The notes under the pieces are model-generated. The model saw nothing but the letters and a program-made list of their open reading frames with translations. It did no database searches and was not told the origin of the DNA. Below are positions 14,246 through 30,653 of a stretch of DNA of 33,690 nucleotides, one piece after another. Both the position numbers and the translations under genes were made by a program. Positions within the stretch are counted from its first letter, which is position 1; each line of letters begins with the position of its first letter. The stretch is from Akkermansia sp. (GTDB taxonomy: Bacteria; Verrucomicrobiota; Verrucomicrobiia; Limisphaerales; SIBH01): contig JAYVWQ010000078.1 of assembly GCA_043785945.1 (NCBI GenBank), forward strand, positions 1 through 33,690, in the 5' to 3' direction.

Positions 14246-14263
14246 CAAGGCGTTTCCGGGAAA

Positions 14264-14283: not shown

Positions 14284-14906
14284 TGAAGGAATTGACCAAA
14301 ATTCAGCAGCGCGTCTTTGATTTCGTGCGCTCCAGACTGGCCGCCGGACGTTCCGCCCCGACGCAGCGTGAGCTGGCGGCAAAATTCCACTGGTCCAGCC
14401 AGAACACGGCGCAATGCCATCTCCAAGCCATCATTCGCAAGGGCTGGCTCCTCGCGGACGAGGGCAAGGCGCGTTCGTTGCGACTGGCCGCCAACCTCGT
14501 GGCGGCACCGCATACGGTGGTGGAAATCCCGTTCCTCGGCACCATTCCCGCCGGTTTTCCCGCTGAACGCTCTCAGGTCGTGGGCAAGTGCGTGCCGGTC
14601 GCCATCGAATCCATCGGCTTCAAACCCAGCCGCCATGCTTTCGCGCTCCAGGTGACGGGCGACTCCATGATTGGGCGGCACATTTGCGACGGGGACATTG
14701 CCCTGCTCGAACACGGGCCGGAGCCGCGCTCCGGTCAGATTGTGGCCGCGCTCATCGACGGCGAAGTGACGTTGAAAACCTTCGTCCTCAAGAATGGCAA
14801 AACCTTCCTGCGGGCCGAGAATCCCAAATATCCCGACTTGCTCCCCTCCGAGGAGCTGGTCATTCAGGGGTTGCTCAAGGCCATCATTCGGCGGGCCAAA
14901 GAATGA
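14283..14906 (+). CDS. lexA: LexA repressor (S24 peptidase)
   Basis: Start at MKELTKIQQRVFDFV. Winged-HTH region PTQRELAAKF..SSQNTAQCHLQAIIRKGWL. Ala-Gly cleavage site in LGTIPAGFP. Catalytic Ser in VTGDSM and Lys in VTLKTF. Confidence 0.93.
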   Translation: MKELTKIQQRVFDFVRSRLAAGRSAPTQRELAAKFHWSSQNTAQCHLQAIIRKGWLLADEGKARSLRLAANLVAAPHTVVEIPFLGTIPAGFPAERSQVVGKCVPVAIESIGFKPSRHAFALQVTGDSMIGRHICDGDIALLEHGPEPRSGQIVAALIDGEVTLKTFVLKNGKTFLRAENPKYPDLLPSEELVIQGLLKAIIRRAKE

Positions 14907-14953
14907 GTGTCAGACCGTTCTTGTCCCACCCGGCATGACAGCTTCGCCCGCGC

Positions 14954-17900
14954 ATGGATTCCAAACCGCCCCGCAGCATCGTCCACCTCGATGCGGATGC
15001 TTTCTTCGCCGCCTGCGAGCAGGCGGCGGATGCGAAGCTGCGCGGCCAGCCCGTGGCGGTGGGCGGCACGGCGCGCGGCATTATCGCCTCGGCCTCCTAC
15101 GAGGCGCGCAAGTTTGGCGTGTTCACGCCCATGCCGACGGTGCGGGCGCGCAAGCTCTGCCCCAAGCTCATCGTGTTGTCCGGCGACTACGAACGTTACG
15201 AGTGGTTTTCCGACACGATGTTCGGCTACTGCCTGGACTTCACGCCCGACGTGGAACAGACCTCGATTGATGAAGGCTACTGCGACCTGACGGCCAACCG
15301 GACGAAGAGCGCGGTGGTGATTGCGCAAATCATCCGCAAGGCGATCACGCAACGGCTGAAAATCACGGTCAGTGAAGGGGTGGGTTCCAACAAGCTCATC
15401 AGCTCGGTCGCGTCGAAGTTCAACAAGCCGGCCGCGTTTTACGAAGTGCGGCCGGGCAGCGAGCGGGCCTTTCTCAGTCCCCTGCCGGTCAAGTGGCTGC
15501 CCGGCGTGGGGCCGAAAACCAGTCTGCGCCTGAACGCGGCGGGACTGGGGCGCATTGAGCAAATCGCTGCGACTCCCTTGGACATGCTGGAGCTGGTGCT
15601 GGGCAGTCAGGCCGCGACCATCCGACAGTTCGCCCACGGCCTTGATGATCGGTTGCTCGTGCCCAAACAGGCGCGGCAGAAGACGTTCAGCAAGCAGGAG
15701 ACGTTTGGCGCAGACATCACCGATGAGGAATACGCGGAAGCCGTCTTGCGCCGCATGGCCGATGAACTCTTTGCCGACGTGCGCGCCGAGGGGCGCACCG
15801 TCCGCACGCTCAACGTGCGGGTGCGCTACAACGACATGGGCGAGGATCAGTTGAGCGAGAGCCTGGCGGAACCGACCGATCTGGAAACCGACATTTACGC
15901 GCGGCTGCACACCATGCTGCGCAAGGCTTGGAAGCGGCGCGTGAGCCTGCGCCTCGTCTCGCTCAAACTCTCCAACCTTTACGACGGCCGCTTTCGCAGT
16001 GAACTGCCGTTGGAAGTGTCGGCGCAACGACAGGAGGCGCGGGGCAAACTCGCCGGGGTGATAGATGAACTGCGCCGGGTGCATGGTCACTCCGCCCTTT
16101 TGCGCGGCCATGACTTCCGGCTGCGGACCCCGCCCCGCGCGGCATTGGAAGAAGTGCCGAAGACTGCGCCGCGCCGCCTCTCCATCATCATTCGTCCTGC
16201 CAAGGTCACGACCTTCGCCCCGCTGCGGATGCACAGTCATTATTCGTTTCTCGACTCGGTGCTTTCCCCCACGGCGCTGGTGGAACTGGCGCGGCAACAT
16301 CACTTGCCCGCCGTGGCCCTGACCGACACCGGCAACCTGCATGGCGCGGTGGAGTTCGTGCAGGCCGCGCAGAAGGCCGGGATCAAACCAATCGTCGGTG
16401 TGGAACTGCCCGTGGAGGGCGGCAGCCTGCTGCTCTACGTCGAGTCGGCGCGCGGCTATCACCAACTCTGCCGTCTGCTCTCGCGCCATGCGGAGCGCAG
16501 CGCCCACGATGGCGATGAAAGCTCGGTCGCGAACCAACAGCGCCGCCCCTTTCGCCGCTCGGAACTGGAAGGCGGCACCGATGGACTGCTCGCAGCGGGC
16601 GATGACGCGGGCTGGGCGGAACTGTTTCCGCAACGCTTCTACCGCCTCGTCACCTCGCGCCAGACGCCCAATGACTTTCCCGCCGTGGCGGCTCCGGCGG
16701 TGCGTTACGCCCTGCCCGGCGACCGGCAGAAATACGACATCGTGCAAAGCATCCGCACGCTGACCCTGCTCCGTGAGACGCATCCCGAGAAGCACGCGGA
16801 CGGGCGCTTTCATTTTCGTCCCCCGGCGGAACTGCTGGGCGCGTGCGGTTCGCATCCCGAATGGCTGCACCACACTTTGGAAATCGCAGAGCGTTGCCAC
16901 TTCGATTTCCCCTTCGGCAAGCCGCAGTTCCCCGACTTCCATCCGCCCGATGGTTCCACGGCGCGCGCGTTCCTGCGCCGCCTCGTCATGGACGGGCTGC
17001 GTTCGCGCTACCGCGAGCGGGCCGCGCAGTTTGCCCCGCAGGTGGAGGAGGAGCTGAACATCATCGCTGCCGTGGGCTACGAATCCTACTTCCTCATGGT
17101 CTGGAGCATCTTGCAGGACTGCCGCGCGCGAGGCATTGAGTGGATCACGCGCGGCTCGGCGGCGGATTCGCTCGTGTGCTACTGCCTGCGCATCTCCGGC
17201 GTGTGCCCCGTCCGCTTCGATCTCTACTTCAAGCGATTCCTCAACCCGGAACGGATGGCCCTGCACAAGCTCCCGGACATCGACATTGATTTCCCGCACG
17301 ACCGGAAGGATGACGTGGTGGATCTCATCTTCGCCCGCTACGGCGCGGAGACATGCGCCGTGGTCGGGGGCTTCTCGACGTTCCAGGCGCGCAGTGCCTT
17401 CGCCGAGTGTGCGAAAGTTTTAGGTGTGGGCGAGCGCGACGTGCGCAAGTTCACCGAGCGTTTTCCCTGGGGCTTCGGCGGCGGCTGGGTGCCGGATGAA
17501 ACCGCGCCCAAGGCCGGTGCGGCGCTGGTGGAACTGTTGCAGGCCAGTCCCGAAACGCGCGACCTGCCAGTGGGTGAAGAGCCTTATCGCACCGCGCTGG
17601 AAATGGCCACGGTGCTGGATGGCCGTCCGCGTTATCCGAAAATGCACCCCTGCGGCGTGGTCCTGTCCTGCCAGCCCATGCACGAACTCACCCCGACCTT
17701 CATCTCAAACAAGCGCCGGGCCACCACCCACTACGACATGGATGGCGTCGAGGAAATCGGCCTGGTGAAGATGGACATTCTCGCGCAAGGCGGACTGGCC
17801 GCGATGCGCGACGCGAAGGATGCGCTGGCCCGGCGCGGCCTCATCGTCGATTTGGAAACCTTGGAGCCTTGGGACGATCCCGAAGTGTGGGAGATGATCG

Positions 17901-19267
17901 CCAGCGGCGGCGCGCGCGCCGTGCATCACATCGAGTCGCCCGCCATGATCAACCTCTGCCGCATGACCAACGTGCGGGAGATCGATGGCATCATTGCCAT
18001 CGTCTCCGTCATTCGTCCCGGCGCAGCGAATGAGTCCAAGAAACTTTCCTTCACCCGGCGTTATCAGGGCATGGAACCGGTTCACTATCCGCACCCCTCG
18101 CTGGAGCCGTGCTTGCGCAGCACCTTCGGACTGGTGGTCTATGAGGAACACATCCTGCAAATCTGCGAAGCCTTCGCCGGTCTGCCCGCCGGCCGCGCGG
18201 ATGTCCTGCGCCGGGCGCTGGTGAAACAGAAGCGCGCCGTCGTCGCCGAGATTGCCTTGGAGTTTGATGCGAGCGCCCGAGCGCGCGGACACGACGAGGC
18301 GAAGATTGCCGAAGTGTGGGAACTGGTCACGGGCTTCAACGGCTACGCTTTCAACAAGGCGCACTCCACGGCCTACGGGGTCGAGGCTTATCAGGCCGCG
18401 TGGCTGAAACGCTATCACCCGGCCGAGTTCATGGCCGGTGTGCTGACCAACGGCAAAGGCTTTTATCATCCGCTCGTCTATGTGCTCGAATGTCATCGGC
18501 TCGGCCTGAAGTTCCTGCCGGCGTCGGTCAACGAGCCGGGGCCGTCCTTCGTGCCGCATGGCCCGGCCATCCGCGTGCCGTTGACCCGCGTGAAGGGATT
18601 GACCACGCGCACCACGGATCGCCTCGTCGCCGCGCGGTTGGAAGGCGCGTTCACTTCGCTACGCGATTTTTTTCACCGCGTTGCGCCCACAGGCGAAGAA
18701 CTGGAGGCCATGATCCGTGCCGGAGCTTTCGATGAGTTCGGAGACGCACGCACGCGGCAGTTCTGGCAGGCGCAGCATCTGTTGAAGACTTTCGCGGGCA
18801 CCGCCGAGCCGGGCCAGGCATGGCTGCTGCCCCCACCGGGCTTGGAACAACTGCCCGGCCTTCCGCTCAATGAGCCGACGCGGCTGGAACGCCTGCAATC
18901 AGAAACGGAATTGTTCGGCTTCGCCGTCAGCGGCCATCCGCTCGAACTGTTCCCCGATGTGGCGTGGGACACATATTGCCCGGTCAATCGTCTCGGTCAG
19001 TTCATTGGTGAGACGGTCACAACTTGCGGCCTGGTGGTGGAACAACGCACGCATCATCAAGCCACGGGCGAGCCAATGAAATTCATGTCCATCGCCGACC
19101 GCACGGGCATCGTGGAAACAGAAATGTTCGCCGACAGCTACCGCAGCCACGCGCTCGCCACTGTCCGCTATCCGGTGCTGGAAGTGACGGCGACCGTCGA
19201 GCCATTCGAGAATGGACGCGGCTTTTCGTTGCGGATCATCAGGGCCGGAGAACCTAGGAAGAAGTAA
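14954..19267 (+). CDS. dnaE2: Single-ORF fusion: DinB-like Y-family DNA polymerase (aa 1 to about 350) + linker + DnaE2 error-prone Pol III alpha-like polymerase (aa about 421-1437)
   Basis: Y-family part: IVHLDADAFFAACEQ, SIDEGYCDLT (acidic catalytic residues present), NKLISSVASKFNKP and LPGVGPKT, plus a little-finger region. DnaE2 part: PHP domain FAPLRMHSHYSFLDS..VALTDTGNLHGAVEF, palm LPDIDIDFPHDRKDDV, KMDILAQGGL, and C-terminal OB fold (TVTTCGLVVEQR..MKFMSIADRTG). No stop or frame change lies between the parts. Confidence 0.85.
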   Translation: MDSKPPRSIVHLDADAFFAACEQAADAKLRGQPVAVGGTARGIIASASYEARKFGVFTPMPTVRARKLCPKLIVLSGDYERYEWFSDTMFGYCLDFTPDVEQTSIDEGYCDLTANRTKSAVVIAQIIRKAITQRLKITVSEGVGSNKLISSVASKFNKPAAFYEVRPGSERAFLSPLPVKWLPGVGPKTSLRLNAAGLGRIEQIAATPLDMLELVLGSQAATIRQFAHGLDDRLLVPKQARQKTFSKQETFGADITDEEYAEAVLRRMADELFADVRAEGRTVRTLNVRVRYNDMGEDQLSESLAEPTDLETDIYARLHTMLRKAWKRRVSLRLVSLKLSNLYDGRFRSELPLEVSAQRQEARGKLAGVIDELRRVHGHSALLRGHDFRLRTPPRAALEEVPKTAPRRLSIIIRPAKVTTFAPLRMHSHYSFLDSVLSPTALVELARQHHLPAVALTDTGNLHGAVEFVQAAQKAGIKPIVGVELPVEGGSLLLYVESARGYHQLCRLLSRHAERSAHDGDESSVANQQRRPFRRSELEGGTDGLLAAGDDAGWAELFPQRFYRLVTSRQTPNDFPAVAAPAVRYALPGDRQKYDIVQSIRTLTLLRETHPEKHADGRFHFRPPAELLGACGSHPEWLHHTLEIAERCHFDFPFGKPQFPDFHPPDGSTARAFLRRLVMDGLRSRYRERAAQFAPQVEEELNIIAAVGYESYFLMVWSILQDCRARGIEWITRGSAADSLVCYCLRISGVCPVRFDLYFKRFLNPERMALHKLPDIDIDFPHDRKDDVVDLIFARYGAETCAVVGGFSTFQARSAFAECAKVLGVGERDVRKFTERFPWGFGGGWVPDETAPKAGAALVELLQASPETRDLPVGEEPYRTALEMATVLDGRPRYPKMHPCGVVLSCQPMHELTPTFISNKRRATTHYDMDGVEEIGLVKMDILAQGGLAAMRDAKDALARRGLIVDLETLEPWDDPEVWEMIASGGARAVHHIESPAMINLCRMTNVREIDGIIAIVSVIRPGAANESKKLSFTRRYQGMEPVHYPHPSLEPCLRSTFGLVVYEEHILQICEAFAGLPAGRADVLRRALVKQKRAVVAEIALEFDASARARGHDEAKIAEVWELVTGFNGYAFNKAHSTAYGVEAYQAAWLKRYHPAEFMAGVLTNGKGFYHPLVYVLECHRLGLKFLPASVNEPGPSFVPHGPAIRVPLTRVKGLTTRTTDRLVAARLEGAFTSLRDFFHRVAPTGEELEAMIRAGAFDEFGDARTRQFWQAQHLLKTFAGTAEPGQAWLLPPPGLEQLPGLPLNEPTRLERLQSETELFGFAVSGHPLELFPDVAWDTYCPVNRLGQFIGETVTTCGLVVEQRTHHQATGEPMKFMSIADRTGIVETEMFADSYRSHALATVRYPVLEVTATVEPFENGRGFSLRIIRAGEPRKK

Positions 19268-19268
19268 C

Positions 19269-19616
19269 ATGGCTGTCGGTCAACTCTGGCTCTTTCCGCC
19301 GCCCCGACCTCTCGTCGAACGACTGGGTGAGGAGTTCTTTCGCACCCTGCCCACTGCGCCCGGCGTCTATCTCATGTGCGGCGAGCGCGAAGGCGTTCTT
19401 TACGTGGGCAAGGCGCGCAATCTGCGCAAGCGCCTCTCCAGCTACCGGGTCGCGAATCCCGAACGCCTCCCGCGTCGCATCATCCGCCTGCTGTATCAAG
19501 TTCGCCGCATCGAATTGGATGTGTGTGCCACGGAAGCCGCCGCACGGCACCGGGAGGAGGAATTGATCGGTGTCCTGCAACCGCGCTTCAATCGGGCTGG
19601 CGTGGTGTGGCCGTGA
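19269..19616 (+). CDS. Stand-alone GIY-YIG nuclease-domain protein (UvrC N-terminal / Cho-like), 115 aa
   Basis: The ATG lies 1 nt after the dnaE2 TAA (19265-19267). PGVYLMCGEREGVLYVGKARNLRKRLSSY closely matches the UvrC GIY-YIG signature. The downstream EEELIGVLQPRFNRAG supplies the conserved Glu and Asn. Confidence 0.8.
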   Translation: MAVGQLWLFPPPRPLVERLGEEFFRTLPTAPGVYLMCGEREGVLYVGKARNLRKRLSSYRVANPERLPRRIIRLLYQVRRIELDVCATEAAARHREEELIGVLQPRFNRAGVVWP

Positions 19617-19801
19617 TGCGACTTCACAGTGCCACCGCGCTGGCCTTCTTGCGTTCTAGAATCCCGCGATCAGATTCTGGAACGAGTGTCGTGTTGTCAC
19701 GGATGCAGCACAATACTTCTACGGAAATTCCCGAAAGGCTTTGCTTGCTAGCCGCCGTTCCGATAGTGGTTACCACCACAAATCCTTTTCTACTAAGCAA
19801 C

Positions 19802-21208
19802 ATGGAAATTCGCTTCTCATGCCCTGGCTGTTCACAACATCTTTCGGTTTCGCCGCGAGCAGCAGGACAAGCGGTTGAGTGTCCATCGTGCGGCCAGACT
19901 ATGACGGTTCCTTCTGCTTCGCCCGAACCGCCCTCGCTGGTGCCGACTCCCGAATCAGCTTCTGATCACACCGAAACTTTCGTGGTGCCAGCTCATGCTC
20001 CACCTCCCCCGCGCACGGATCAAGGCGATCTGACTTGTCCGGTCTGCTGGTTGAAATTTGACGCTGGAGACGTGATGCACGTCGCGGTGCATGACTCCCT
20101 GCGCGGCGATCCGGTGCTGGGGGAGGACGCACCACAACGCTTCCACGCCACGCGCTTCAACGACGCCAGCCAGGCGCTTGATGCGATGGGGCTGCCGTGC
20201 CTCGACGTGGCTTGTCCGCATTGTCGGCGCAAGTTTCCTCCCGGCTTTCTGGATGTGCCGTATCACATCATCTCATTGGTCGGTGATCAGAGCGCGGGCA
20301 AGTCGTATTACCTCAGCGTGATGGCGAAGGTATTCCCGGCGAGTCTGTACCGGCATTTCGGCGTCACCTGCCAGGACGCGGACCCGACCGGCAACGCACC
20401 GCTCAACGACATGAAAAGCGTGCTCTTTAGCGCGCAATCGCCGGAACAGGCACGTCTTGCCAAGACGCAACTCGAAGGCGCGATGTACGAACGCCTGCCG
20501 CGTCACGGTCGCATGGTCGCGCTGCCCAAACCTTTTGTTTATTCCTTGCGCGGCAATCACGGCGGCGACTCGGCGTGTTCTCTGATTTTTTACGACAACG
20601 CTGGCGAGCATTTTCAACCGGGCCGCGACGTAACGGAACAACCCGGTGCGCTGCATGTGGCGAGCGCGGCAGGTATTCTGTTTCTGTTTGATCCGTTCAA
20701 CAGCCCGGAGTTTCGCAAGTGCATCGGACGGACGGATGATCCGCAGATGGAAAAGCCCGCCATCGATCAACAAGACGTGATTCTTTCGGAAATGCGGTCG
20801 CGCATTCAAAAGATTCGGAACTTGCGCAGTGGGGAAAAAATCCCAACACCGCTCGCCGTGCTCGTGGGCAAGTGCGATGCGTGGCTGCACTTGCTCGAAG
20901 GCGGACCGCTGGCGCATCCGCTCGTGAACGGTGCGCTCTCACTCGACATCATTCGCACCAATTCGCGGCGCATCCGGGAATTTCTCGTTTCCGCCTGCCC
21001 AACGGTCGTGGCGAACGCCGAGGCGTTGAGCGAACATGTTGTCTTTTTCGCCGTCAGTGCGTTCGGTCACACGCCTGTAAAAATTGCGGGCAACGCCTAC
21101 GTGCCCGATCCCGCGCAGTTGGCTCCGGTGCAAGTGGAAGTCCCGCCGCTCTGGTTGTTGTCGCAAATTTCGCCGGGCCTCGTGCGGGCCACGGAAACCG
21201 TCGCCTGA
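19802..21208 (+). CDS. Double zinc-ribbon + Ras-like (TRAFAC) GTPase, 468 aa
   Basis: I prefer the start MEIRFSCPGC at 19802. The ORF-track extension back to 19376 overlaps the GIY-YIG gene and is Arg/Pro-rich junk. ZnR1 is CPGC-x16-CPSC. ZnR2 is CPVC...CPHC. G1 is GDQSAGKS (20282..20305), G3 is DNAGE (20594..20608), G4-like is VGKCD (20866..20877) and G5-like is VSAFG. Confidence 0.85.
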   Translation: MEIRFSCPGCSQHLSVSPRAAGQAVECPSCGQTMTVPSASPEPPSLVPTPESASDHTETFVVPAHAPPPPRTDQGDLTCPVCWLKFDAGDVMHVAVHDSLRGDPVLGEDAPQRFHATRFNDASQALDAMGLPCLDVACPHCRRKFPPGFLDVPYHIISLVGDQSAGKSYYLSVMAKVFPASLYRHFGVTCQDADPTGNAPLNDMKSVLFSAQSPEQARLAKTQLEGAMYERLPRHGRMVALPKPFVYSLRGNHGGDSACSLIFYDNAGEHFQPGRDVTEQPGALHVASAAGILFLFDPFNSPEFRKCIGRTDDPQMEKPAIDQQDVILSEMRSRIQKIRNLRSGEKIPTPLAVLVGKCDAWLHLLEGGPLAHPLVNGALSLDIIRTNSRRIREFLVSACPTVVANAEALSEHVVFFAVSAFGHTPVKIAGNAYVPDPAQLAPVQVEVPPLWLLSQISPGLVRATETVA

Positions 21209-21209
21209 C

Positions 21210-23699
21210 ATGCCGCAGCAACTCATCTACACCAGCGCACCGCGCGGACTGGCGGCAGGCCGGGCCGGCTTTTGCACGGTGGCGATGAGTGTGGGATTGC
21301 GTGAGGCGCTGGCGCTGAAACTGGAGCAGATCAGTTACTTCGATCATGGCGCGATGGGCGCGGGTGAGCAGGTGATTCGCGCCTTTCGTCTCATAGACCT
21401 TCGGGGCACCCGTTATTTTGTCCTCTCACGCGTGCAGGATTGCGGACTCGATTTCACGCAACGAACTAATTTCATCGCGCACCATCTGATCTTCACGCCG
21501 GAAGAAGTTTCTGACGTTGCCAGGCCACCGGAAATCTTCCGGCAATGGAACGGCTGGCTGACTCGCTGGGATGGTGAGCCAAGCGTTTTATCGGATAATG
21601 ACTGGGGCAACCTCTATGCAATTCCCAGCCGCCAGCCGCCGGCCCGCGCCTGGGCGCGACTCGCTGGCGATGCGATGAACGCCTTTGCTCTCCTTGAAAC
21701 GTCCGGTCTCCTGTTGAACGTCGAGGGCGTGGCGGATGACGCCGTGCTCGATTTGTTTGCCGAGTCCTTGGCGCTGCTGGAAGCGCGCGAGGCCCGCGAC
21801 TTCCGTGCCGCCGCCTGGCAGTTCACTTTCACCACGGCTTTACAGAATCAGGATGCCCCGGCGGAGTTTCGCTGGCGCTGCGTGCGCGGCGATGGCGGAG
21901 GGTTGACCAACCTAGGCTCGGCGCGCGTTCAGCCGCTGCTGCAACTTCGTCCGGCCCGCGTCAGCGTGGGCGAAGCGTCGTTCGCACGCTCCGGCTATCA
22001 GCCGCCGAAGATTCTCGCGGAGCCGAAAGACGCTTACGCAAGTGAAGGCGAAAGCGTGACATTGCGCGTGGACGTGAGCGGCCTGCCAACGCCGAATCGT
22101 TTCCAGTGGTTCAGTCTCTCCCGCACTGGCGCGGAAGAACCCCTCGCCGACGCGAGCAGCGCCGAGTTGAGCATCCGTCCGGCGCGCGGGATGAATCGTT
22201 ACTGCGTCAAGATTTCCAATCTGCGTGGTGACACCGTGATGAGCCGCGTGGCGCAAGTCTCCGTGGACGCGGCCGTGAGAGTGCCCGGTCTTCAAGCTCC
22301 TCGCACCACGTCCGCACCGGCGGGCGTTCACCAAACTGCAAGGGCCGCAAAAGAGTGGACGGCTGATCCGTTGGAAGCGGAGACATTTAGGCTCCAAGTG
22401 GAAGAACGCGAACGGAAGCGAAGCCGAAATCGGATGCTTTTAGTAACTGTCGCGGTTTTTGCTCTGGTTGGCATCGTGGTTGGATTCTTGGTGGTGAAAC
22501 GTCCTGACCTTTTTTTGAATCGGCACCGTGCCGATGCTTCGCAATTGGAGGGGAGCGACGAAACTAACAAGACCAATGAGAGAACACCACCTGTCACATC
22601 TCCTGCAAAACCCATACGCGACATTGGGGCCAACGAGCGCGTGGCCGAGTCGCAAGATGCCTTGAAGGAGAAGGTGTTTCTTGCGCTGTTGACAGCGAAG
22701 AGCGACATCCCGATTCGTGGAGCACTTGCCGCGAAGCTGCGGCGCTTTTTCGTCGGAACGACGAACGGATCGCCAATGTCCGTGGCAAGCAGCGATAAGC
22801 CAGATCGGGCGCTACTGCCGAAGGAGAAGGAACAAGAAATCAAAGCAGATCGGAAGATTGACATCAAAATCAGCACCAATTCGCTGCATCTGACGACGAA
22901 CAATACTGACGTGGTTTTGTCAGCTACCGTCTTAAAGAGTCCAGTCCTCCTTCGATTTGTCGATAAGTCTTCACCAATCGGGGAGTCCTTTCAGTTACTT
23001 GTGTGGCCGAATAATCCCGCCGTCCCGGCGGAATTGACGTTCGTTAATGCCCACCTCCAACTCATGGATGGGTGGCCGCAAATCCTTGCCGCGACTGAAG
23101 GTGAACATTTTTTCTTCAACGGGAATCACCCCGACATGGACACGGTTAAAAGCAACAAAATCGAACGCAGCTACGCAATCGAATACAAGCCCGCTTTTGA
23201 GACGAGACGGCGAGATGCAGCCAAAATGTTGACGACATACGAGTCTTGGCGCGACGCAACTGAGAAAATGGTTCGGCTTCGCGACAAGGTCGGCCTTGGG
23301 AAAACCAGCGCAGATTCATTGAATGGCATCTGGGACGAAGTTCAGGCTGTCTGCATCGAAGCTGTCGGAGCGACGCGGCGCGATTTCAATTTCAGCAATC
23401 CTCAAAACGACAATCGAAAAAGCGACGCGCAACGAATTGTGCAGGAATGGCGCTCTTTACGAAAACCAGACTTGGAATTGGCTGAGGCAGCTTTGAGTGG
23501 CCTCACCATTGATGCACTCGAACAAATCGTCGGCAACGGACAGCAATCCATGCGAACGCTTGATGGAGCGCGGCAGACTCTGAAAGAAAGAATCGACAGT
23601 GCGAAAGCGCAACAATCATTCTCCGCAGCCAAGATAACTTGCCAAATCCATTACGGGAAACCCGACGGGCAAGTGCTTGTGCAATTCAAAGTCAAATGA
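21210..23699 (+). CDS. Membrane-anchored protein: GTPase-associated-protein (GAP1-N2)-like N-terminal domain + Ig (I-set-like) domain + TM helix + about 390-aa C-terminal domain of unknown fold
   Basis: The ATG lies 1 nt after the preceding TGA. The N-terminus MPQQLIYTSAPRGLAAGRAGFCTVAMS resembles the QLHYTS..G..GFQ..A.S signature I recall for GAP1-type proteins. The Ig-like segment is PPKILAEPKDAYASEGESVTLRVDVSGLPTPNRFQWF...YCVKISNLRGDTVMSRVAQVSV (about 22002..22270). The TM helix is MLLVTVAVFALVGIVVGFLVV (about 22433..22495). The C-terminal half is visibly more A/T-rich than its surroundings. Confidence 0.8.
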   Translation: MPQQLIYTSAPRGLAAGRAGFCTVAMSVGLREALALKLEQISYFDHGAMGAGEQVIRAFRLIDLRGTRYFVLSRVQDCGLDFTQRTNFIAHHLIFTPEEVSDVARPPEIFRQWNGWLTRWDGEPSVLSDNDWGNLYAIPSRQPPARAWARLAGDAMNAFALLETSGLLLNVEGVADDAVLDLFAESLALLEAREARDFRAAAWQFTFTTALQNQDAPAEFRWRCVRGDGGGLTNLGSARVQPLLQLRPARVSVGEASFARSGYQPPKILAEPKDAYASEGESVTLRVDVSGLPTPNRFQWFSLSRTGAEEPLADASSAELSIRPARGMNRYCVKISNLRGDTVMSRVAQVSVDAAVRVPGLQAPRTTSAPAGVHQTARAAKEWTADPLEAETFRLQVEERERKRSRNRMLLVTVAVFALVGIVVGFLVVKRPDLFLNRHRADASQLEGSDETNKTNERTPPVTSPAKPIRDIGANERVAESQDALKEKVFLALLTAKSDIPIRGALAAKLRRFFVGTTNGSPMSVASSDKPDRALLPKEKEQEIKADRKIDIKISTNSLHLTTNNTDVVLSATVLKSPVLLRFVDKSSPIGESFQLLVWPNNPAVPAELTFVNAHLQLMDGWPQILAATEGEHFFFNGNHPDMDTVKSNKIERSYAIEYKPAFETRRRDAAKMLTTYESWRDATEKMVRLRDKVGLGKTSADSLNGIWDEVQAVCIEAVGATRRDFNFSNPQNDNRKSDAQRIVQEWRSLRKPDLELAEAALSGLTIDALEQIVGNGQQSMRTLDGARQTLKERIDSAKAQQSFSAAKITCQIHYGKPDGQVLVQFKVK

Positions 23700-26677
23700 A
23701 CCTTCTCGAAACCAAACGGCTGGTGCGGAAGATCGGGGAACTGCTCCACGAGCAGGGTGACGCGGCGATGGCCCCGAAGCTGGCGCAAGATTTTGTTGCC
23801 GCGTGTCGCGCCGTGATCGTGCGCTTGAACCAGTGCGAGGCGATGATTTCCTCCAACGAGGGGATGCAGGCGCTGCAACTCGCTGAGACGTCGCCGAATT
23901 TGATGGACCTCCTGGCTTCGCTGGAATTTCGCGAAGCAGCGGCTTGGCGAAAGTATTGCCGTGAGCACGAACTTCCGGTTGCGGAGACATTCGACGAACG
24001 CGCCGTCCACAAGCTGAACGAGTGCTACGCGCGCGGCATCAACACGGACCATCCCCTGTATCGTGATTACCGTCGCGCGATGGTGCTCAAGGATGACGAG
24101 GCTGCATTGACCGTTTTGCGCACCATCGGACGGATCAATACCGCCGATGACAATGCGCGTTCGGAACTGGCGCGGCTCGACCGCAAGGTTTTGAACGAGC
24201 GACTTGCCGCGCTGGGGCAATTGCTCGACAGCGGTTCTCCTGTAGAGATTGCGCGTGAGGTTAGCGACATCGAATCAAGCGCGTTTCAAAACAGTCCGGC
24301 GGGCGAGATTTGGCGCAGCGCGCAAGCGATTCGCTGCGACGTGTTGCTCGACGCCATTGCGGTGGACCGGCAGAGCAACGATTGGCGCAGCGCGCTTGAC
24401 CGTTTGGATTTCATAGCGGGATTGCAACGCGATTGGGATTTTTCTCTCGATGCGGCGGCGCAATCACGCTTCTCGGAACTGTGGGCCTGGGCGGAGAACG
24501 AACGATACAAGGATGAGCAGGATCGGCTTTTCAAGTCGCTGCTGGTGCAACTGCGCCACCTCGTCGATCTGAGCGAGGAAAAAGAAATCGCCGCGCGGGA
24601 AATCGAATTGCCGGAGTTGAAGGCCGATTTGGAAGAATTGCAGAAGAAGTGGCGAGCCATCGAACAGTTCGCGCGTCCGGTGCCGGACGATCTGACGGCG
24701 CGCTATCGCAAACGCGTGGCACTGGTGCAGGCGGAGGTTTCGCGGCGGGTACGGCTGCGGGTCCGCAACATCGCCATCGGTGTGGCAGCCGCATTGCTGT
24801 TGATCGCGGGCACAACTTGGACGTTTCAACAGCATCTCAAGGGCAAGGACTTCGTTCACCAACTTCAAGCGGCACGCGAGCAACGGCTGGCACGAACGGC
24901 GGAAAAACTCGTGGCGCACACGCGCGACACGGATCGTGGACTCTCGGGCAAGAGCGGCGTGCCGGCTGCGCTCGCGGAAACAGAAACTTTTCTCAAACGC
25001 GAACTCGGCCTGCTGGAAAGTTTCCAAGGAGCAACGCGCGAACTGCCATCCGACCTCGCGGGCTTGACCGGGGCGGAGCAATTGAAGGCCACTCATCAGC
25101 GGCTGGCGAATGTCACGAATCTGCTGGCGCAACTCGCGCCCGACTTGCGGGCGGAAAGCGAGCCGAAGCTGAACGCCTGGCGCGCCGCCTGGACGCGGCA
25201 TTTGTTCGAGCGCAGCACGGAATTGAACAAAAGCTTTGAGAGCGCATTGCGGCAAGCCGAGCAAAACGCGGCGCGGATGAATTTCTCCCTGTCCACCGCT
25301 GCCGCACGCGCGGACGTGGCGTCGGTGGGAGCGGAGTTGTCAAAACTCGCGGACGAGGAACAGGCGTTCACCGGAGCGTTGCGCTGGCGCAGTGAGTTGC
25401 TGCAACGGTCCAAGGAACTGCGCGACAAGCACAGCGCGTTTGCGGGTGAGTTGGGAAAGTTTGACGCCGCGTGGTCCGGGGTCGCGCGGGCGCGCAACAC
25501 CACCGACTTCAACGCATCCGTGGCCGCGCTGTCGCGCTCTGAATTTACCACCGCGCCAGAAGTGCGAGCCGCCGGTTCGGTGCGTGACCTGGAGTTTTCG
25601 GACGAGTCGCTGTTGCGCTCGTTGCTCTGCGGCAATGATGTCGGCCTCTGGAACCACATCAGCGGCTCCGCCCCGATGGATTTTATGCCGAAGGCCGTGA
25701 TGCCCGCCGAGAAAATGAAACTGCTCGAACTGAAAAACGAAGACGCGATCAACCCGGAGCATTACTGCTACTCACTGCGCCTCACCGTGGAGCCGCCGTC
25801 CTCGGTGACGTGGATCACGGAAGGCAAACTCAACAACACCGAACAGATTTGGAGAAAAATACGGGCTTTTGTACCCACCGCTGCCACAACTTCATGCGAA
25901 TTTCGTATGGCTGAATACGGGTGGTTCGATGGTCGCTACGTTTTACCTTCAAAGCAGCAACTTCAAGACGTTCGGCTGATCGGGCCATGCACGGAGGCAA
26001 AATCCTTCTACGCACTCCGGCTGCCGGAACTGATGGCGCTGCACAACGACACCTACCAATTTCCACTGCTCAAGAAGCTGGATGAACTCAAGACGGGGCG
26101 CGAGGACTCGCCTCTTTTCCGGGCCTACCTTTTCCTACGGCTGTGCGAATTGATGGACTTGCAGCCGGAAGGTTGGGGCGTGCCATTCGCTCCTTCATTG
26201 GCGGCGGATCGCGAGCGGCTGGTGAGCGCGGGCGGGTCAGAAGTGCGCAGCGGCGACTGGTACGTGCCAACACGCGGGCAGAGGCTGGCTACGCCGTTGC
26301 AGAAAGTTTTCGAGCAAGCCGCCAGCATCTCGTACTGGGAACAGGCGCAAACGTCGGCCAAAGTTTTTCGGGCCACACTCGCCGCCGGTGTCCGCTACGT
26401 GGGGTACGTGGACGCGGACGGCAAATTGCGGGCGGGCGAAACGACCACGGGCGAAATTTGGGGCTGGGAATCTGGCACGCGCAAACCAGCCGTCCTCGCG
26501 GTTAGCACACCTTCCGGTTGGAAATCCATTTCGGCACCGCTTCCCTGCTCGCCGCTGTTCGCATTCGCGGAAGACCGCGCCGCGCTGCTGGTCAAGGCTG
26601 GCGTGAAGCCTGGCGACACGATGATGAATTCCGCGCTGCCCGTCGTGTTCCGCACGGTCGCTCCTAAAACTAAATGA
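23696..26677 (+). CDS. Large (993 aa) predominantly alpha-helical / coiled-coil protein with one TM helix
   Basis: ATGA overlap with the upstream gene (23696..23699). Start at MNLLETKRLVRKIGELL. TM helix IAIGVAAALLLIAGTTWTF (about 24769..24825). Composition is helical and heptad-like throughout. I recognise no catalytic motif. Confidence 0.8.
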   Translation: MNLLETKRLVRKIGELLHEQGDAAMAPKLAQDFVAACRAVIVRLNQCEAMISSNEGMQALQLAETSPNLMDLLASLEFREAAAWRKYCREHELPVAETFDERAVHKLNECYARGINTDHPLYRDYRRAMVLKDDEAALTVLRTIGRINTADDNARSELARLDRKVLNERLAALGQLLDSGSPVEIAREVSDIESSAFQNSPAGEIWRSAQAIRCDVLLDAIAVDRQSNDWRSALDRLDFIAGLQRDWDFSLDAAAQSRFSELWAWAENERYKDEQDRLFKSLLVQLRHLVDLSEEKEIAAREIELPELKADLEELQKKWRAIEQFARPVPDDLTARYRKRVALVQAEVSRRVRLRVRNIAIGVAAALLLIAGTTWTFQQHLKGKDFVHQLQAAREQRLARTAEKLVAHTRDTDRGLSGKSGVPAALAETETFLKRELGLLESFQGATRELPSDLAGLTGAEQLKATHQRLANVTNLLAQLAPDLRAESEPKLNAWRAAWTRHLFERSTELNKSFESALRQAEQNAARMNFSLSTAAARADVASVGAELSKLADEEQAFTGALRWRSELLQRSKELRDKHSAFAGELGKFDAAWSGVARARNTTDFNASVAALSRSEFTTAPEVRAAGSVRDLEFSDESLLRSLLCGNDVGLWNHISGSAPMDFMPKAVMPAEKMKLLELKNEDAINPEHYCYSLRLTVEPPSSVTWITEGKLNNTEQIWRKIRAFVPTAATTSCEFRMAEYGWFDGRYVLPSKQQLQDVRLIGPCTEAKSFYALRLPELMALHNDTYQFPLLKKLDELKTGREDSPLFRAYLFLRLCELMDLQPEGWGVPFAPSLAADRERLVSAGGSEVRSGDWYVPTRGQRLATPLQKVFEQAASISYWEQAQTSAKVFRATLAAGVRYVGYVDADGKLRAGETTTGEIWGWESGTRKPAVLAVSTPSGWKSISAPLPCSPLFAFAEDRAALLVKAGVKPGDTMMNSALPVVFRTVAPKTK

Positions 26678-27474
26678 ATCCAAACCCGCCACCGCCCTTT
26701 TCATCGGAGCCGAGTTACGACGGCCCGCTGCGATTGAGTTGGCGTGGTCGCGAGGAGGGGCCGTTCCTGTGGGCGGAGATTGAGCGTCGGCTGACTGCGA
26801 ATGAGATCGGCCTGTTCCATGAAGTGCAAGTGGACGGCGCATGGATGACGCTGCGCGCCTTCCTTGAATTGCGTGAAGCCGCACAACTAGAGGCAAAGGC
26901 GCGACGGGAAGAAGCCGAGCGTGTTGCCAATGTCCACGCGGCGCGTGCCGCCGAGGACCGCGCCGCGCGGCATCAGTCCGAAGTGCTCGCGGAGGAAAAG
27001 CGCAAGAACGATTTGATGGCGGCGGCGCTTGGCCTGCCACAAGGGAAGAAAAGTCCGATGTCACTCCCACGCTTGCTGCGGAACATCGCGCTTGTCCTGG
27101 TGCTGGTGTGTGGCGTATTTGCCGCGTATCAGGCGTATCGCATTCCCGAACTCACCGCGCTCTCGGCCCGCGCCCGCGAAGTCGCCGCGAAATTCAACTA
27201 CGTCGATTCGCCGACGGCGAGCCGCCTGGGCATCAATCTTTTCGCGTCGCTCTTTGGTGATGCGCGTGATGTGCGCGACGCCATTGCGGAAGTTTCGCAG
27301 ACCATCGGCGACAAAGAGAAGCTTCAGCAACGCTATCAATGGATGGCGACGCAATTGAGCGCGGAGTTGGAGACGGCGGGCATCGCGCGCAACTGGGCGC
27401 TGCTCCTGGGTTGCTGCTTCGCCATCGCTGCGATTTGTTTTCACTTCGGAGCACGCAACGACCAAACCGTATGA
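26674..27474 (+). CDS. GYF_2 (DUF4339)-like domain protein with coiled coil and two TM helices
   Basis: ATGA overlap at 26674..26677. The GYF-like region is LRLSWRGREEGPFLWAEIERRLTANEIGLFHEVQVDGAWMTLRAFLE. A charged coil follows. TM helices are LLRNIALVLVLVCGVFAAYQAY and NWALLLGCCFAIAAICFHFG. Confidence 0.8.
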   Translation: MNPNPPPPFSSEPSYDGPLRLSWRGREEGPFLWAEIERRLTANEIGLFHEVQVDGAWMTLRAFLELREAAQLEAKARREEAERVANVHAARAAEDRAARHQSEVLAEEKRKNDLMAAALGLPQGKKSPMSLPRLLRNIALVLVLVCGVFAAYQAYRIPELTALSARAREVAAKFNYVDSPTASRLGINLFASLFGDARDVRDAIAEVSQTIGDKEKLQQRYQWMATQLSAELETAGIARNWALLLGCCFAIAAICFHFGARNDQTV

Positions 27475-28358
27475 ACACTGCCGCCACCTCAGCACCTTTG
27501 CCCGCCGCCGCCCCTGAACTTGCGTTGGCGTGGACACAACAAGATTACGAGAACCGCATCGGTTTTCGCGGCGGGCGCTACATGAGCGTGAATCATCTGC
27601 TCGCGTTTCTTGCGGCGCTGCTCGGCACGGTGGCGGCGTTCGCGCTCGCGGTCTTTGTCCTCAAACCGATTTCTTTCACCGCGCCCGTCGGCGAAATGTT
27701 CCTTCGGCCTGGCAACCAGTTCACCGTTATTCCGGCGACTGTATTTTTCTTCTGGGGTGCGGCCGTGCTTTTCATCAAACACCACAAATTGAAGCTTCAG
27801 GAACGGTCGCTCGCGCTGTCGCCGGTGCCGGCGGAACCGGAGTTTGTGCTGACTGAGGCCACGGCGAATTCGGTGCTCTCACGGCTGCACGCAATTGTGG
27901 ATCACCCGCGCCATTTTGTTTTGCTCAACCGCATCGACCGCGCGTTGTCGAACTTGCGGAACATAGGACAGGTGAACGACGTGTCCTCCATCTTGCGCGC
28001 CCAGGCGGAGAACGATGAGGATCACGTCGCGTCGAGTTACACGCTGGTCAACGGGCTGGTCTGGGCCATCCCCGTGCTGGGCTTCATCGGCACCGTGCAG
28101 GGCTTGAGCATGGCCATCGGGAAGTTCGGCCAGACGCTCCAAACGTCGGGCGACATCTCGGCCATCCGCCAGTCGTTGCAAGGCGTGACCGGCGGACTGG
28201 CGACGGCCTTCGAGACAACGCTCGTGGCGCTGGTCTTCGCGCTGATCCTGCAACTCTGGATCACCTTTCAACAACGGCGTGAGATGGCGTTCCTCGATGA
28301 GTGCAATGACTACTGCCATTCGCATGTCGTGGCGAAACTTCGTCTGACCAATCGCTGA
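27471..28358 (+). CDS. MotA/TolQ/ExbB-family proton (ion) channel protein
   Basis: ATGA overlap at 27471..27474. Multiple TM helices are present. The family signature near the C-terminus is LVWAIPVLGFIGTVQGLSMAI ... VTGGLATAFETTLVALVFALILQLW. Confidence 0.88.
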   Translation: MNTAATSAPLPAAAPELALAWTQQDYENRIGFRGGRYMSVNHLLAFLAALLGTVAAFALAVFVLKPISFTAPVGEMFLRPGNQFTVIPATVFFFWGAAVLFIKHHKLKLQERSLALSPVPAEPEFVLTEATANSVLSRLHAIVDHPRHFVLLNRIDRALSNLRNIGQVNDVSSILRAQAENDEDHVASSYTLVNGLVWAIPVLGFIGTVQGLSMAIGKFGQTLQTSGDISAIRQSLQGVTGGLATAFETTLVALVFALILQLWITFQQRREMAFLDECNDYCHSHVVAKLRLTNR

Positions 28359-28361
28359 CTC

Positions 28362-29444
28362 ATGGCGAGCCGTCTGCGCAGAAATAACTGGGCGCGAATC
28401 AGTTTCTTCGCGTTCCAGGACATTATCACTGCGGTCAGCGGCATCCTGATTCTGATCACGCTCATCCTCGCGACTGATTTGGATCGCACCACGAGCGCAC
28501 GTTCCACCGAGCTTCAACCCGAATTGGAAATGCGGCTGGCCCAATTGCTGGAAGAACAAACGGCACTGGAACTGTTGAACCAGCAATTGCGGCAGTCGCT
28601 CACCGGAGCGCGCAACGCACCGGGACTCGAACAACTCACGAATGAAATTCGTGACCTGAAACAGCGTCTCGACGCGATGCAGGGCAAATTTACGAATTTG
28701 CTGGCCGTTGCCACCGCGCAACGGGCCGCTCAAGCGGAACGCGACGCCCGTCTGGGATTGGCGGCTTTCAGCGCCGACATCGACGCGCTGAACAAGGAAA
28801 ACACAAAACTGGCCGCACTGGTCGCCGATGCACGGCGCAAAATGGACCGCGCAGAATCCGAAGTGAAGCGCGCCGAGAACATCGTGCTCAAAAGCCGTGC
28901 GCGATCTGGAATGTGGGTGCTTCCTGATGACCGCAGCACAACAAAAGAACCGTTGCTCGTGACGATCAGTGGCAGCGAAGTAATTGCGGAGCGTTTCGAC
29001 CAACCGGACAAACAACTGAGATGGGCGAGCGGCGGGGCGTCTGCGGACTTTCGCCGTTTCCTCGCGGTCGTGAACAAGGACAATCAGTACATCGTGTTCT
29101 TCGTGCGCCCGTCCGGCATCCGGCTTTTTGAGCAGTTGTCTGACCTCGCCCGCGCGCAGCAAATCGACATCGGGTTCGACGCCGTTGAAGAAAAGCAAGA
29201 AGTGCATTTCTCCAAGCCGCCGCCGATTGAGGCAGACCCCGATACCACAACACCCGTTCGTCCGCCGGTTGGTCCCGGAACGATGTCGGTCGGAGATTCT
29301 TCACCTGCAACACCCATCAAATCTGCGACGGCTGAACCGGCGACTGTGCCGGCGAGCAAGCCGCCGGCTGTTGCTGCGCCCGCCGTCCCCTCTGCCCCTG
29401 CTTCATGGTGGCGGCGTCTTCTAAAATCCTTGGGACTCGCATGA
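28362..29444 (+). CDS. ExbD/TolR/MotB-like single-pass stator partner 1 (TM Asp, coiled coil, globular C-terminal domain, Pro-rich tail)
   Basis: Starts 3 nt after the MotA-like stop. The N-terminus RISFFAFQDIITAVSGILILITLILA has an Asp codon at 28419..28421. A long coiled coil follows. The C-terminal domain is ..YIVFFVRPSGIRLFEQLSDLARAQQIDIGFD.. followed by a P/A-rich tail. Confidence 0.75.
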   Translation: MASRLRRNNWARISFFAFQDIITAVSGILILITLILATDLDRTTSARSTELQPELEMRLAQLLEEQTALELLNQQLRQSLTGARNAPGLEQLTNEIRDLKQRLDAMQGKFTNLLAVATAQRAAQAERDARLGLAAFSADIDALNKENTKLAALVADARRKMDRAESEVKRAENIVLKSRARSGMWVLPDDRSTTKEPLLVTISGSEVIAERFDQPDKQLRWASGGASADFRRFLAVVNKDNQYIVFFVRPSGIRLFEQLSDLARAQQIDIGFDAVEEKQEVHFSKPPPIEADPDTTTPVRPPVGPGTMSVGDSSPATPIKSATAEPATVPASKPPAVAAPAVPSAPASWWRRLLKSLGLA

Positions 29445-30358
29445 GCTTTCGCCGCCAATCACGGGGCGACAGCCTCGACCTGCTGCTCGACACGATGTGC
29501 AACACGTTCGGTGGCATCATCATGCTCGCGGTGCTGGTGACGTTGCTTTCCAAGCAGGAGCGCAGTGGACGCGCTACCGTCGATTCCGAGGAAATGATGC
29601 GTCGGAGAATCAGCGAGGGTGAACTGACTTTGAAGGAAAGCCGCGCGGCGAACGCCAACCTCGTCACCGATGCGGGCGACTCTGACACCAAGAAGCGTTT
29701 GGAAGCCGTAGCGGAAAAAAAGGCGCTGCGATCCATGCTCGAAGCCTCGGCGCGCGACGCCGAGGCTGCAAATGCAAGCCAGCCGCTCGCCGCTCGGGAT
29801 GCCGCCGCGCGTATGGCGCAGTTGCGCGAGGAAATGACGAAAGCCATTGCCACGCGCACTGATTTGAGCAACCAGTTGTCCACGGCGGAGATCAACACGC
29901 GCCGACTCACCGCGCGGGCCAGTGATTTGGCAAAGCAGGCCGCCGCATTGCAGAGCGCGTCCGTGCAAAAGCTGCGTTTGCCGAAAGAACATTTCACCGG
30001 CAAGTCGGTCGTGAACGTGATTATCCAATACGGCAAGGTCTATCCGGTGCATACCACGTCCAGAGCAAGAAACACGGCACACGTTGAATTCACCAAGAAT
30101 GGAAATGGCGTGACTGTTCGGCCCCTGCCGGAAGCTGGCCTCGATGTACGGAGCAATGATTGGAAGAACTGGCTGAACCGGCTCGCGGCCAACCGGGAAT
30201 ACATTGGGTTTTATGTGTTCGAGGACTCATTCGGCGCTTTCAACGCAGCCAAGAAGGCCACAGTGGACGCAGGATTTGATTATGGATGGGAACCGGAACA
30301 ATTGGCCTCCGGTCCCCTGTCATTCGGCGCAGTGGGTTCCCAGCCAAAAGCTCAGTAA
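29441..30358 (+). CDS. ExbD/TolR/MotB-like single-pass stator partner 2 (paralog of the preceding gene)
   Basis: ATGA overlap at 29441..29444. The N-terminus SLDLLLDTMCNTFGGIIMLAVLVTLL has an Asp codon at 29489..29491. A coiled coil follows. The C-terminal domain ..EYIGFYVFEDSFGAFNAAKKATVDAGFDYGWE.. has the same pattern as the upstream paralog. Confidence 0.75.
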   Translation: MSFRRQSRGDSLDLLLDTMCNTFGGIIMLAVLVTLLSKQERSGRATVDSEEMMRRRISEGELTLKESRAANANLVTDAGDSDTKKRLEAVAEKKALRSMLEASARDAEAANASQPLAARDAAARMAQLREEMTKAIATRTDLSNQLSTAEINTRRLTARASDLAKQAAALQSASVQKLRLPKEHFTGKSVVNVIIQYGKVYPVHTTSRARNTAHVEFTKNGNGVTVRPLPEAGLDVRSNDWKNWLNRLAANREYIGFYVFEDSFGAFNAAKKATVDAGFDYGWEPEQLASGPLSFGAVGSQPKAQ

Positions 30359-30606
30359 ATCTTTATAGGCTTCCGCGAGCGTTCAAGCTGAACTGTGACA
30401 CTTCCCGGAGGATTTACCGGCGAAAGGGACGACATCAATTCCGCAGTCAAACCGACTGAAACACCGTGCCGCAGCCTCTAAACGTCTGGACGAAACGGGC
30501 GGGACGGCGGCGGACGGAAATCGAAATGGAAAACGGAGCGCGATGCGGCAGGAGGGGGGGGAGGCGGTTTCGGTGGCGGGGTGAGTTCACTCGATGGATT
30601 CGCGTG

Positions 30607-30643: not shown

Positions 30644-30653
30644 CCTGTCGGCA

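Follow-up and report, generated by a model that had tools for sequence, protein, structure and literature searches.

DO-GTPases and their GAP1 partners, the latter described with N, M and C domains and in N1 and N2 types, were defined computationally (Kaur et al., eLife 2020, PMC7159879). The main text of that study places N2 systems in planctomycetes and verrucomicrobia, describes GAP1 as often fused to C-terminal transmembrane (TM) segments and extracellular parts, and proposes that GAP1 couples sensing to the GTPase switch. The N2 themes named there are tubulin, HSP70 and kinase, and a rapidly evolving FNIII-repeat protein accompanies N2 systems. We analyzed a stretch of 33,690 nucleotides (nt) from Akkermansia sp. 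(contig JAYVWQ010000078.1, the whole of it hereafter called the window), in which one gene encodes a GAP1-N2-type membrane protein of 829 amino acids (aa). The C-terminal part of this protein, from residue 360 on, is hypervariable, with sharp borders and a break in base composition.

The locus resembles the described DO-GTPase/GAP1-N2 systems in having GAP1-N2 and an equivalent of the M domain, a Zn-ribbon TRAFAC-type GTPase encoded directly upstream, a C-terminal TM followed by a variable outer part, and a host among the Verrucomicrobiota. It differs from them in that an immunoglobulin (Ig) domain, a TM helix and an orphan tail stand where GAP1-C would be expected. Likewise, the MotA/ExbB-like channel, the proteins with a TM-borne Asp (Asp-TM proteins) and the 1000-aa coiled-coil protein encoded here fit none of the N2 themes in the main text of PMC7159879. 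The terms 'MotA', 'ExbB' and 'immunoglobulin' are absent from that main text, and its source data could list this context. Elsewhere in the literature searched, DO-GTPases are named only in passing, and no publication was found there that links a MotA/ExbB unit to Verrucomicrobia Zn-ribbon GTPase conflict systems. The family itself is known by computational prediction.

We first describe the constant part of the protein, residues 1-359 (the head). MPQQLIYTSA is the N-terminus in 24/24 aligned homologues, so the ATG at 21210 is a sound start. An earlier note on this DNA, made from the letters alone, had claimed a GAP1-like N-terminus, and the claim is borne out by the Pfam model PF20013, which scores far above its cut-off (Table 1); the motif is real, with Y7, T8, S9, G13, G17, G20, C22, T23 and V24 invariant in 25 sequences. 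A whole-genome scan of the genome that carries the window (81% complete) found PF20013 in a single gene, at 84.8 bits. NCBIfam and PADLOC gave no match for the 829-aa protein, and Pfam gave no direct match to GAP1-M (PF20014) in it. With the family alignment as query, hhalign aligned head residues 1-233 to residues 2-233 of planctomycete GAP1 proteins, which carry Pfam GAP1-N2 (3-134) and GAP1-M (151-247), at probability 100 and E 6e-47, indicating that residues ~145-233 are a diverged GAP1-M. GAP1-C had no Pfam match at E <= 0.1 in the 829-aa protein and none in the planctomycete N2+M proteins scanned; its position is taken here by the Ig domain, the TM helix and the tail.

The Ig domain is supported by several methods. 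Pfam Ig_3 matches residues 265-326 at 31.2 bits (cut-off 30), with I-set below its own threshold, and the sandwich at residues 262-357 has 222 matches in the PDB at E <= 0.001 (Foldseek). The family profile matches titin at E 1.5e-31. The I-set-like module that the earlier note had put at about 22002..22270 lies within a few codons of these borders. For residues 1-410, an AlphaFold2 model based on 67 sequences reached a predicted local distance difference test (pLDDT) value of 92 and a predicted template modelling score of 0.82, and both structure-search lists for this model were filled by Ig matches. The N2 part of the model (residues 1-112) has the order beta-beta-alpha-beta-beta-beta-alpha at pLDDT above 89, which we take to be the element order of the longin domain. 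In its element order the N2 part may resemble longin/DENN-type GTPase regulators of eukaryotes.

Behind the Ig domain the protein is predicted to cross the membrane once. The single TM helix, which the earlier note had put at about 22433..22495, was found within a few nt of that place (Table 1), and in the model a helix that begins at residue 387 (the juxtamembrane helix) runs into it. A hydropathy scan revealed no hydrophobic N-terminal segment in the 829-aa protein, and K/R residues number 6 in the 15 residues preceding the TM versus 4 in the 15 following it. Since there is no signal-like segment and one TM only, since the positive residues slightly favor the preceding side, and since the head would have to meet a soluble GTPase, we infer that head and Ig domain are cytoplasmic and that the last ~400 residues are periplasmic.

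To locate the variable part, we compared the protein with its relatives. Full-length coverage was found for P0005 and P0006 only, among the 120 listed of 151 matches of a word-indexed search, with the others at no more than 64%. In an exhaustive search, P0005 alone among the best 150 of 3414 matches aligned past residue 520. Identity to P0005 per window of 40 residues is 87-100% up to residue 360, 40-50% at residues 361-440 and 12-31% at residues 441-829, or about 95% overall for residues 1-360 and about 20% beyond the TM. The break falls after AAVRVP (P359), just past the Ig domain, which is itself conserved at 87-97%. The earlier note had located the variable part after the TM. The tail is indeed hypervariable, but the unit as read from these alignments begins earlier: it starts right after the Ig domain and so takes in the linker and the TM helix.

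The same border is seen in X7, a metagenome run from a different study than the likely source samples. One X7 contig (5883 nt) aligns with 21600-22285 at 91.1% (61 differences), carries 1389 unlike letters where the window has 22286-23692 (1407 nt), and realigns over 23693-25853 at 93.8% and over 25964-27500 at 94.9%. Other X7 contigs align with 20192-21616 at 88.4% (differences only) and with 27488-29500 at 93.9%. The replaced block begins where the Ig domain ends and stops three bases short of the next gene's ATG, and its length is nearly kept. Within 3 nt of its start this next gene is back to 93.8% identity, indicating that there is no wholesale co-variation of the partner. Coverage by runs X6 and X9 is sparse or nil at 22608-23375, where the depth of X5 is 3-5, and no conclusion was drawn from X6 and X9.

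We examined whether the pattern recurs in related operons. Of 210 pairs among 21 operons, the 30 with the most similar heads were taken, and in all 30 the tail is the least conserved of the parts compared. For example, the pair L022/L038 is 94% identical in the GTPase, 86% in the head, 86% in the coiled-coil protein and 94% in the MotA-like protein, and 35% in the tail. The corresponding values for L020/L025 are 94, 89, 81 and 89%, with 63% in the tail, and L018/L040 combine 91% in the GTPase and 89% in the head with 25% in the tail, the two tails having 260 and 98 residues. The proportion of synonymous differences (pS, Nei-Gojobori) in L022/L038 is 0.40-0.49 in flanks and head versus 0.79-0.82 past residue 350, suggesting that the tail alleles are older than their flanks, although pS in a tail alignment of 35% identity is inflated by misalignment. 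In L020/L025 the synonymous rate (dS, same method) is alike across the gene, and the ratio of nonsynonymous to synonymous rates (dN/dS) is 0.30 in the tail versus 0.05-0.12 in the other parts, indicating faster protein change within one allele lineage.

Base composition breaks at the same place. The earlier note had observed a lower GC content after the TM, and GC is indeed 0.50-0.53 at 22650-23700 against 0.62-0.66 at 21600-22350. GC at third codon positions (GC3) falls from 0.714 in residues 1-360 to 0.50 in residues 361-440 and is 0.576 in residues 441-829, with 0.65-0.80 in the neighboring genes, and the drop begins at nt 22290, coinciding with the similarity break. GC3 past the Ig domain is below that of the head in 17/18 related operons, with a mean drop of 0.135, whatever the tail class; these 18 operons are kin and hence no independent samples. 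Together the collapse against P0005, the X7 replacement, the 30 operon pairs, the saturated pS and the GC3 drop agree with the fast-evolving or swapped module that the note had suspected, and the C-terminus is neither uniformly conserved nor ordinary in composition.

The tail itself has few recognizable kin. As the earlier note had seen no motif after the TM, so Pfam, NCBIfam and PADLOC gave no match there. A database-wide search with the tail only (residues 441-829) returned the query alone among 8000 scored candidates and nothing among 3649 shorter candidates. A model of the tail has strands at tail residues 138-229 and helices at 231-372, with pLDDT of 70-92 only for 233-372. We sorted the tails of 182 family proteins, those with full start and TM, into classes: T1 with 65 members, T2 with 50, T3 with 11, T4 with 5, 15 short tails, and a remainder of small classes. 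The T4 tail of the window shows a weak relationship to those of P0005, P0006, P0133 and P0153, the last two added by BLAST; the links P0001-P0005 and P0005-P0006 were set by hand in the clustering, and BLAST recovers both at E < 1e-3. A profile of the five T4 tails matches T3 tails at probability 93.9 (E 1.6e-7, 176 columns), with all other classes below 4. T1 tails are ~260 aa long, and in P0026 this tail passes the ConA-like GH43_C2 model (26.7 bits versus a cut-off of 22.7). A ConA-like beta-sandwich in the commonest class (65/182) would speak for a binding and not an enzymatic role.

In a tree built with FastTree from residues 1-250 of the 182 proteins, tail class mostly tracks clade, and short tails are scattered within the T1 clade. 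This tree needs 39 changes of tail class, a count without a shuffled-label control that serves only the statement that class follows clade.

The gene lies in a predicted operon of seven genes that is conserved in Verrucomicrobiota and encodes, in order, the GTPase, GAP1, a coiled-coil protein, a small membrane protein, the MotA/ExbB-like protein and two Asp-TM proteins (Table 1). The TGA of the GTPase gene ends at 21208, leaving a gap of 1 nt before the ATG of GAP1, and the ATG of the coiled-coil gene and the GAP1 stop codon share an ATGA, so that the three genes are translationally coupled. ATGA overlaps recur at the junctions of the 266-aa and MotA-like proteins and of the 360-aa and last proteins, which suggests coupling throughout the operon; the first overlap alone was read base by base, the others being taken from coordinates and translation. 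The MotA-like protein probably starts at M45, in an ATGA overlap with the preceding stop, giving ~296 aa, and its orthologues (57-75% identical) align from residue ~40-63 of the long open reading frame (ORF). The last protein likewise probably starts at M13, again with an ATGA overlap, since the alignments of its orthologues begin at residue 12-13 of the long ORF; Pfam gave no match at all for this last protein. Pfam and NCBIfam scans gave no ExbD, TolR or MotB match for either Asp-TM protein. A promoter and terminator scan of 19200-31400 was unusable (1 promoter-like site with 1.8 expected, and 11 terminator-like sites with 17.9 expected).

Thirty-four related loci, mostly from Verrucomicrobiota metagenome-assembled genomes, were retrieved with the family alignment as query, a single-protein query finding none. 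The GTPase is present in 33 of them, the coiled-coil protein in 29, the MotA-like protein in 21, the 360-aa protein in 22 and the last gene in 20. All six conserved partners occur together in 18/34 loci, and among the other 16 most are truncated at a contig end; the operon differs in earnest in L021, L031, L036 and L042. The genes keep the same order throughout Verrucomicrobiota. Compared with the window, most GTPases are 57-66% identical and GAP1, over the head only, is 36-49% identical, and in the loci whose coordinates were read the GTPase gene is directly upstream of GAP1. The coupled genes and the GTPase in 33/34 loci are consistent with GAP1 being the direct partner of the adjacent GTPase, to which it would bind. 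Among the divergent loci, L042 (10001-10576) has a 191-aa GAP1 remnant followed directly by the last two operon genes, and in L031 a piece of the last gene comes right after GAP1. In L046 the whole operon is spread over many short frames, which represents a decayed copy or assembly errors.

The coiled-coil gene contains a second, smaller variable patch, at 25854-25963. Its GC3 is 0.52, versus 0.65-0.82 in the rest of the gene, and orthologue identity is lowest nearby. Contigs of three runs either stop aligning at the patch or diverge there at unchanged length. Lying on the periplasmic side, the patch may share a recognition surface with the GAP1 tail.

Table 1. Features of the GAP1 gene and its operon in the window. 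Coordinates are positions in the 33,690-nt stretch.
Feature	Coordinates	Strand	Evidence or remark
Zn-ribbon GTPase, 468 aa	19802..21208	+	two CxxC...CxxC pairs, Walker A GDQSAGKS
GAP1-N2-type membrane protein, 829 aa	21210..23699	+	ATG 21210, TGA 23697-23699
GAP1-N2 domain, residues 2-124	21213..21581	+	Pfam PF20013, E 1.1e-22, 81.1 bits, cut-off 24
GAP1-M-equivalent region, residues ~145-233	21642..21908	+	hhalign to planctomycete GAP1 proteins
Ig (I-set-like) domain, residues 262-357, predicted cytoplasmic	21993..22280	+	Pfam, model, structure search
Hypervariable cassette, residue 360 to last codons (linker, juxtamembrane helix, TM, tail)	22286..23692	+	X7 contig, P0005 break, GC3 drop
Single TM helix, residues 411-429	22440..22496	+	Kyte-Doolittle mean 3.01, sole segment above 1.6
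Polar tail linker without confident structure, residues ~430-567, predicted periplasmic	22497..22910	+	pLDDT 25-30
Tail core, residues ~568-829, beta-rich stretch then helical bundle, orphan domain (class T4)	22911..23696	+	model
Coiled-coil membrane protein, 993 aa, one TM (residues 352-370)	23696..26677	+	orthologues 31-41% identical
Second small hypervariable patch, residues 720-756 of the coiled-coil protein	25854..25963	+	contigs of three runs diverge exactly here
Small membrane protein, 266 aa, two hydrophobic segments, weakly conserved	26674..27474	+	no Pfam, NCBIfam or PADLOC family found
MotA/ExbB-like channel protein, four hydrophobic segments	27471..28358	+	Pfam MotA_ExbB 36.4 bits, cut-off 22.9
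Coiled-coil protein, 360 aa, N-terminal TM with conserved Asp	28362..29444	+	FFAFxDIITAVSG in 17/17 sequences
Protein of ~305 aa, N-terminal TM with conserved Asp	29441..30358	+	LLDT[ML]C in 15/15 sequences

The operon is accessory and its distribution is patchy. GAP1-N2 was matched in 0/11 genomes of the same genus and in 3/60 genomes of relatives, where the remaining matches hit the Ig region only. Preceding the operon, at 14208-19267, the window encodes LexA and then an ORF of 1437 aa in which a DinB/ImuB-type Y-family polymerase (IMS domains, residues 12-342) is joined to a DnaE2-type PHP/Pol III alpha (residues 424-1267). Three genomes of the same genus keep LexA and the DinB::DnaE2 fusion, the latter 66-79% identical, and the stretches behind the pair in these three, 6.7, 2.3 and 13.7 kb long, contain no operon gene. 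Downstream, 1 kb past the operon, a type I restriction R subunit (ResIII, EcoEI_R_C, HSDR_N) occupies 31375-33690 and runs off the end of the window, which gives the region the look of a defense island. Two further ORFs were noted: one of 270 aa on the minus strand (30447-31259), with no family, and a 1434-aa protein at 7700-12004, also minus, with DUF1592, DUF1588, DUF1587, DUF1585, DUF1595 and a cytochrome c motif, a planctomycete-type PSD/PSCyt domain set that is ordinary for the PVC lineage.

From the observed domain make-up, operon, sharply bordered hypervariability and compositional break we propose that the protein is the membrane-spanning GAP1-N2 subunit of a DO-GTPase system, with a polymorphic outer specificity cassette that senses a ligand from outside the operon and an output through a stator-like unit. 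We consider this model somewhat more likely than not. The head (GAP1-N2, GAP1-M-like and Ig domains, residues 1-359) would dock in the cytoplasm on the Zn-ribbon GTPase and regulate it, and the single TM would carry the remaining ~400 residues into the periplasm. There the cassette would bind its target, which would most probably be part of an invader or of a disturbed envelope. The cassette would evolve fast, and homologous recombination in the conserved flanks would exchange it between lineages. The TM helix and the Ig domain would relay ligand binding to the head, and the head would set the nucleotide state of the GTPase. Output would pass through the co-transcribed coiled-coil membrane protein and the MotA/ExbB-like channel, which with its two Asp-TM partners would form a proton-driven, stator-like unit.

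Several points weigh against this model. The GTPase scores 23.1 bits with Pfam DO-GTPase2, below the cut-off of 27, and Pfam found no FNIII match in any of the seven operon proteins, unlike the N2 systems of the main text of PMC7159879. No experimental test of any DO-GTPase/GAP1 family member was found in the literature searched. The tail model is poor (mean pLDDT 48), with no fold match above noise and none in the ESM Atlas, and therefore nothing in it shows ligand binding by the tail. Since tail class mostly follows the head tree, swaps between classes are uncommon; the common events are loss and, inside a class, replacement or divergence. The cassette replacement is seen in one contig, at depth 7.4, of one run, and P0005 and this contig may share their data origin, so that the two lines need not be independent. 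The inflated pS noted above counts here too, and the low tail GC3 could stem from AT-biased mutation in a fast-changing segment with no import. Finally, a dN/dS of 0.30 in one alignable pair is below 1, a value that relaxed constraint could also give.

A more specific form of the model can be drawn: a receptor machine across the inner membrane, coupled to the proton motive force and gated by the GTPase. The periplasmic GAP1 cassette and the 37-residue patch of the coiled-coil protein would be its sole hypervariable parts and would jointly form the invader-recognition surface, with old, balanced alleles passed between species by recombination. We regard this form as possible and, taken as a whole, doubtful.

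TolQR and ExbBD each pair a channel protein with a single-TM partner whose membrane Asp is functionally significant. The present operon likewise encodes a channel of MotA/ExbB-like type together with two proteins whose single TM carries an Asp, and it might serve as a Tol/TonB-type housekeeping machine of the envelope, or as a GTPase-gated motility or secretion motor, in which the tail is a weakly constrained spacer or anchor under relaxed selection. The ~130 polar tail residues without confident structure, the tail dN/dS below 1 and the gene order fixed across Verrucomicrobiota suit such a machine. However, a housekeeping function fits poorly with the patchy distribution, with 0/11 genomes of the same genus positive and the operon missing behind the LexA-DnaE2 cassette in three of them. 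Likewise, a spacer would hardly be bordered sharply by a domain end and a gene end at nearly kept length (1389 versus 1407 nt), and it is the folded tail core too, not the linker alone, that is 12-31% identical to P0005. The saturated pS in the L022/L038 tail and the lectin-like binding fold of the main tail class add to this. Taken together, we consider a housekeeping machine unlikely.

Polymorphic cassettes are known from CdiA/Rhs toxin tips, HsdS target-recognition domains and phage receptor-binding tips. The present protein shares with them a constant N-terminal part, a sharply bordered segment that cannot be aligned, conserved flanks, atypical composition and, as proposed, the shuffling of old alleles; it differs in having no variable immunity gene and no toxin or DNA-recognition fold, and in that the cassette includes the TM helix. 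Polymorphic toxins of the CdiA/Rhs type are characterized by a constant N-terminal part followed by swappable C-terminal cassettes with sharp borders, and on this resemblance the tail could be an effector, a membrane-active or toxic module deployed when the GTPase switch fires. Effectors such as SLATT are indeed fused to the GAP1 C-terminus in the main text of Kaur et al. (PMC7159879). Yet no variable immunity gene follows the tail here, the next gene being 93.8% conserved in the strain with the replaced tail, and no enzymatic or toxin family matches the tail. Moreover, the largest tail class has a non-catalytic ConA-like sandwich, and 15/182 proteins are short-tailed, all of which makes an effector tail improbable.

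The variable regions of diversity-generating retroelements span about 100-150 bp and are adenine-specific. Targeted hypermutation of the tail in place, for example by such an element and not by exchange of old alleles, would fit the extremely local divergence between conserved flanks, but it is highly improbable, as no repeat of at least 30 nt touches 22290-23699 in the 33.7-kb window and there is thus no template repeat there, the 81% complete genome holds no second tail copy, no reverse transcriptase is found among the part of the window's ORFs that was scanned, and the divergence spans 1.4 kb with indels and changed length. As far as can be seen, the locus is no silent-cassette system either, with no second tail copy in the 81% complete genome and no repeat at the cassette.

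Having set our model of a sensing GAP1-N2 subunit against these alternatives, we also compared it with Zorya, which shares a membrane channel unit of the MotA/ExbB type and an accessory context resembling a defense island. The MotA-like protein matches PADLOC ZorA2 weakly (E 8.4e-6, 23 bits) and NCBIfam ZorA at 16.9 bits versus a cut-off of 100, and PADLOC gave no rows for ZorB, ZorC or ZorD among the seven operon proteins. At ~296 aa the MotA-like protein has no room for the long ZorA tail. To our knowledge, Zorya lacks the GTPase and the GAP1 around which the present operon is built. We therefore view the resemblance as an analogy of logic and not as membership.

The locus gives a concrete, testable shape to the DO-GTPase/GAP1 prediction of 2020: a constant head, predicted to be cytoplasmic, and a sharply bordered outer cassette. 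In strains that are otherwise 91-95% identical, this cassette alone among the large parts of the conserved operon is replaced, a behavior that would be expected of a receptor in an arms race. Its location pinpoints where specificity should lie, and natural allele swaps are on offer. Furthermore, a GTPase switch would here be tied to an ion channel of stator-like type, a combination that the main text of PMC7159879 does not mention. If the system is defensive, sensing would take place at the envelope and not in the cytoplasm. If the reading as a receptor machine is true, the operon would represent a type of defense with extracytoplasmic sensing, described neither in PADLOC nor in the literature searched, and would be a bacterial counterpart of polymorphic immune receptors.

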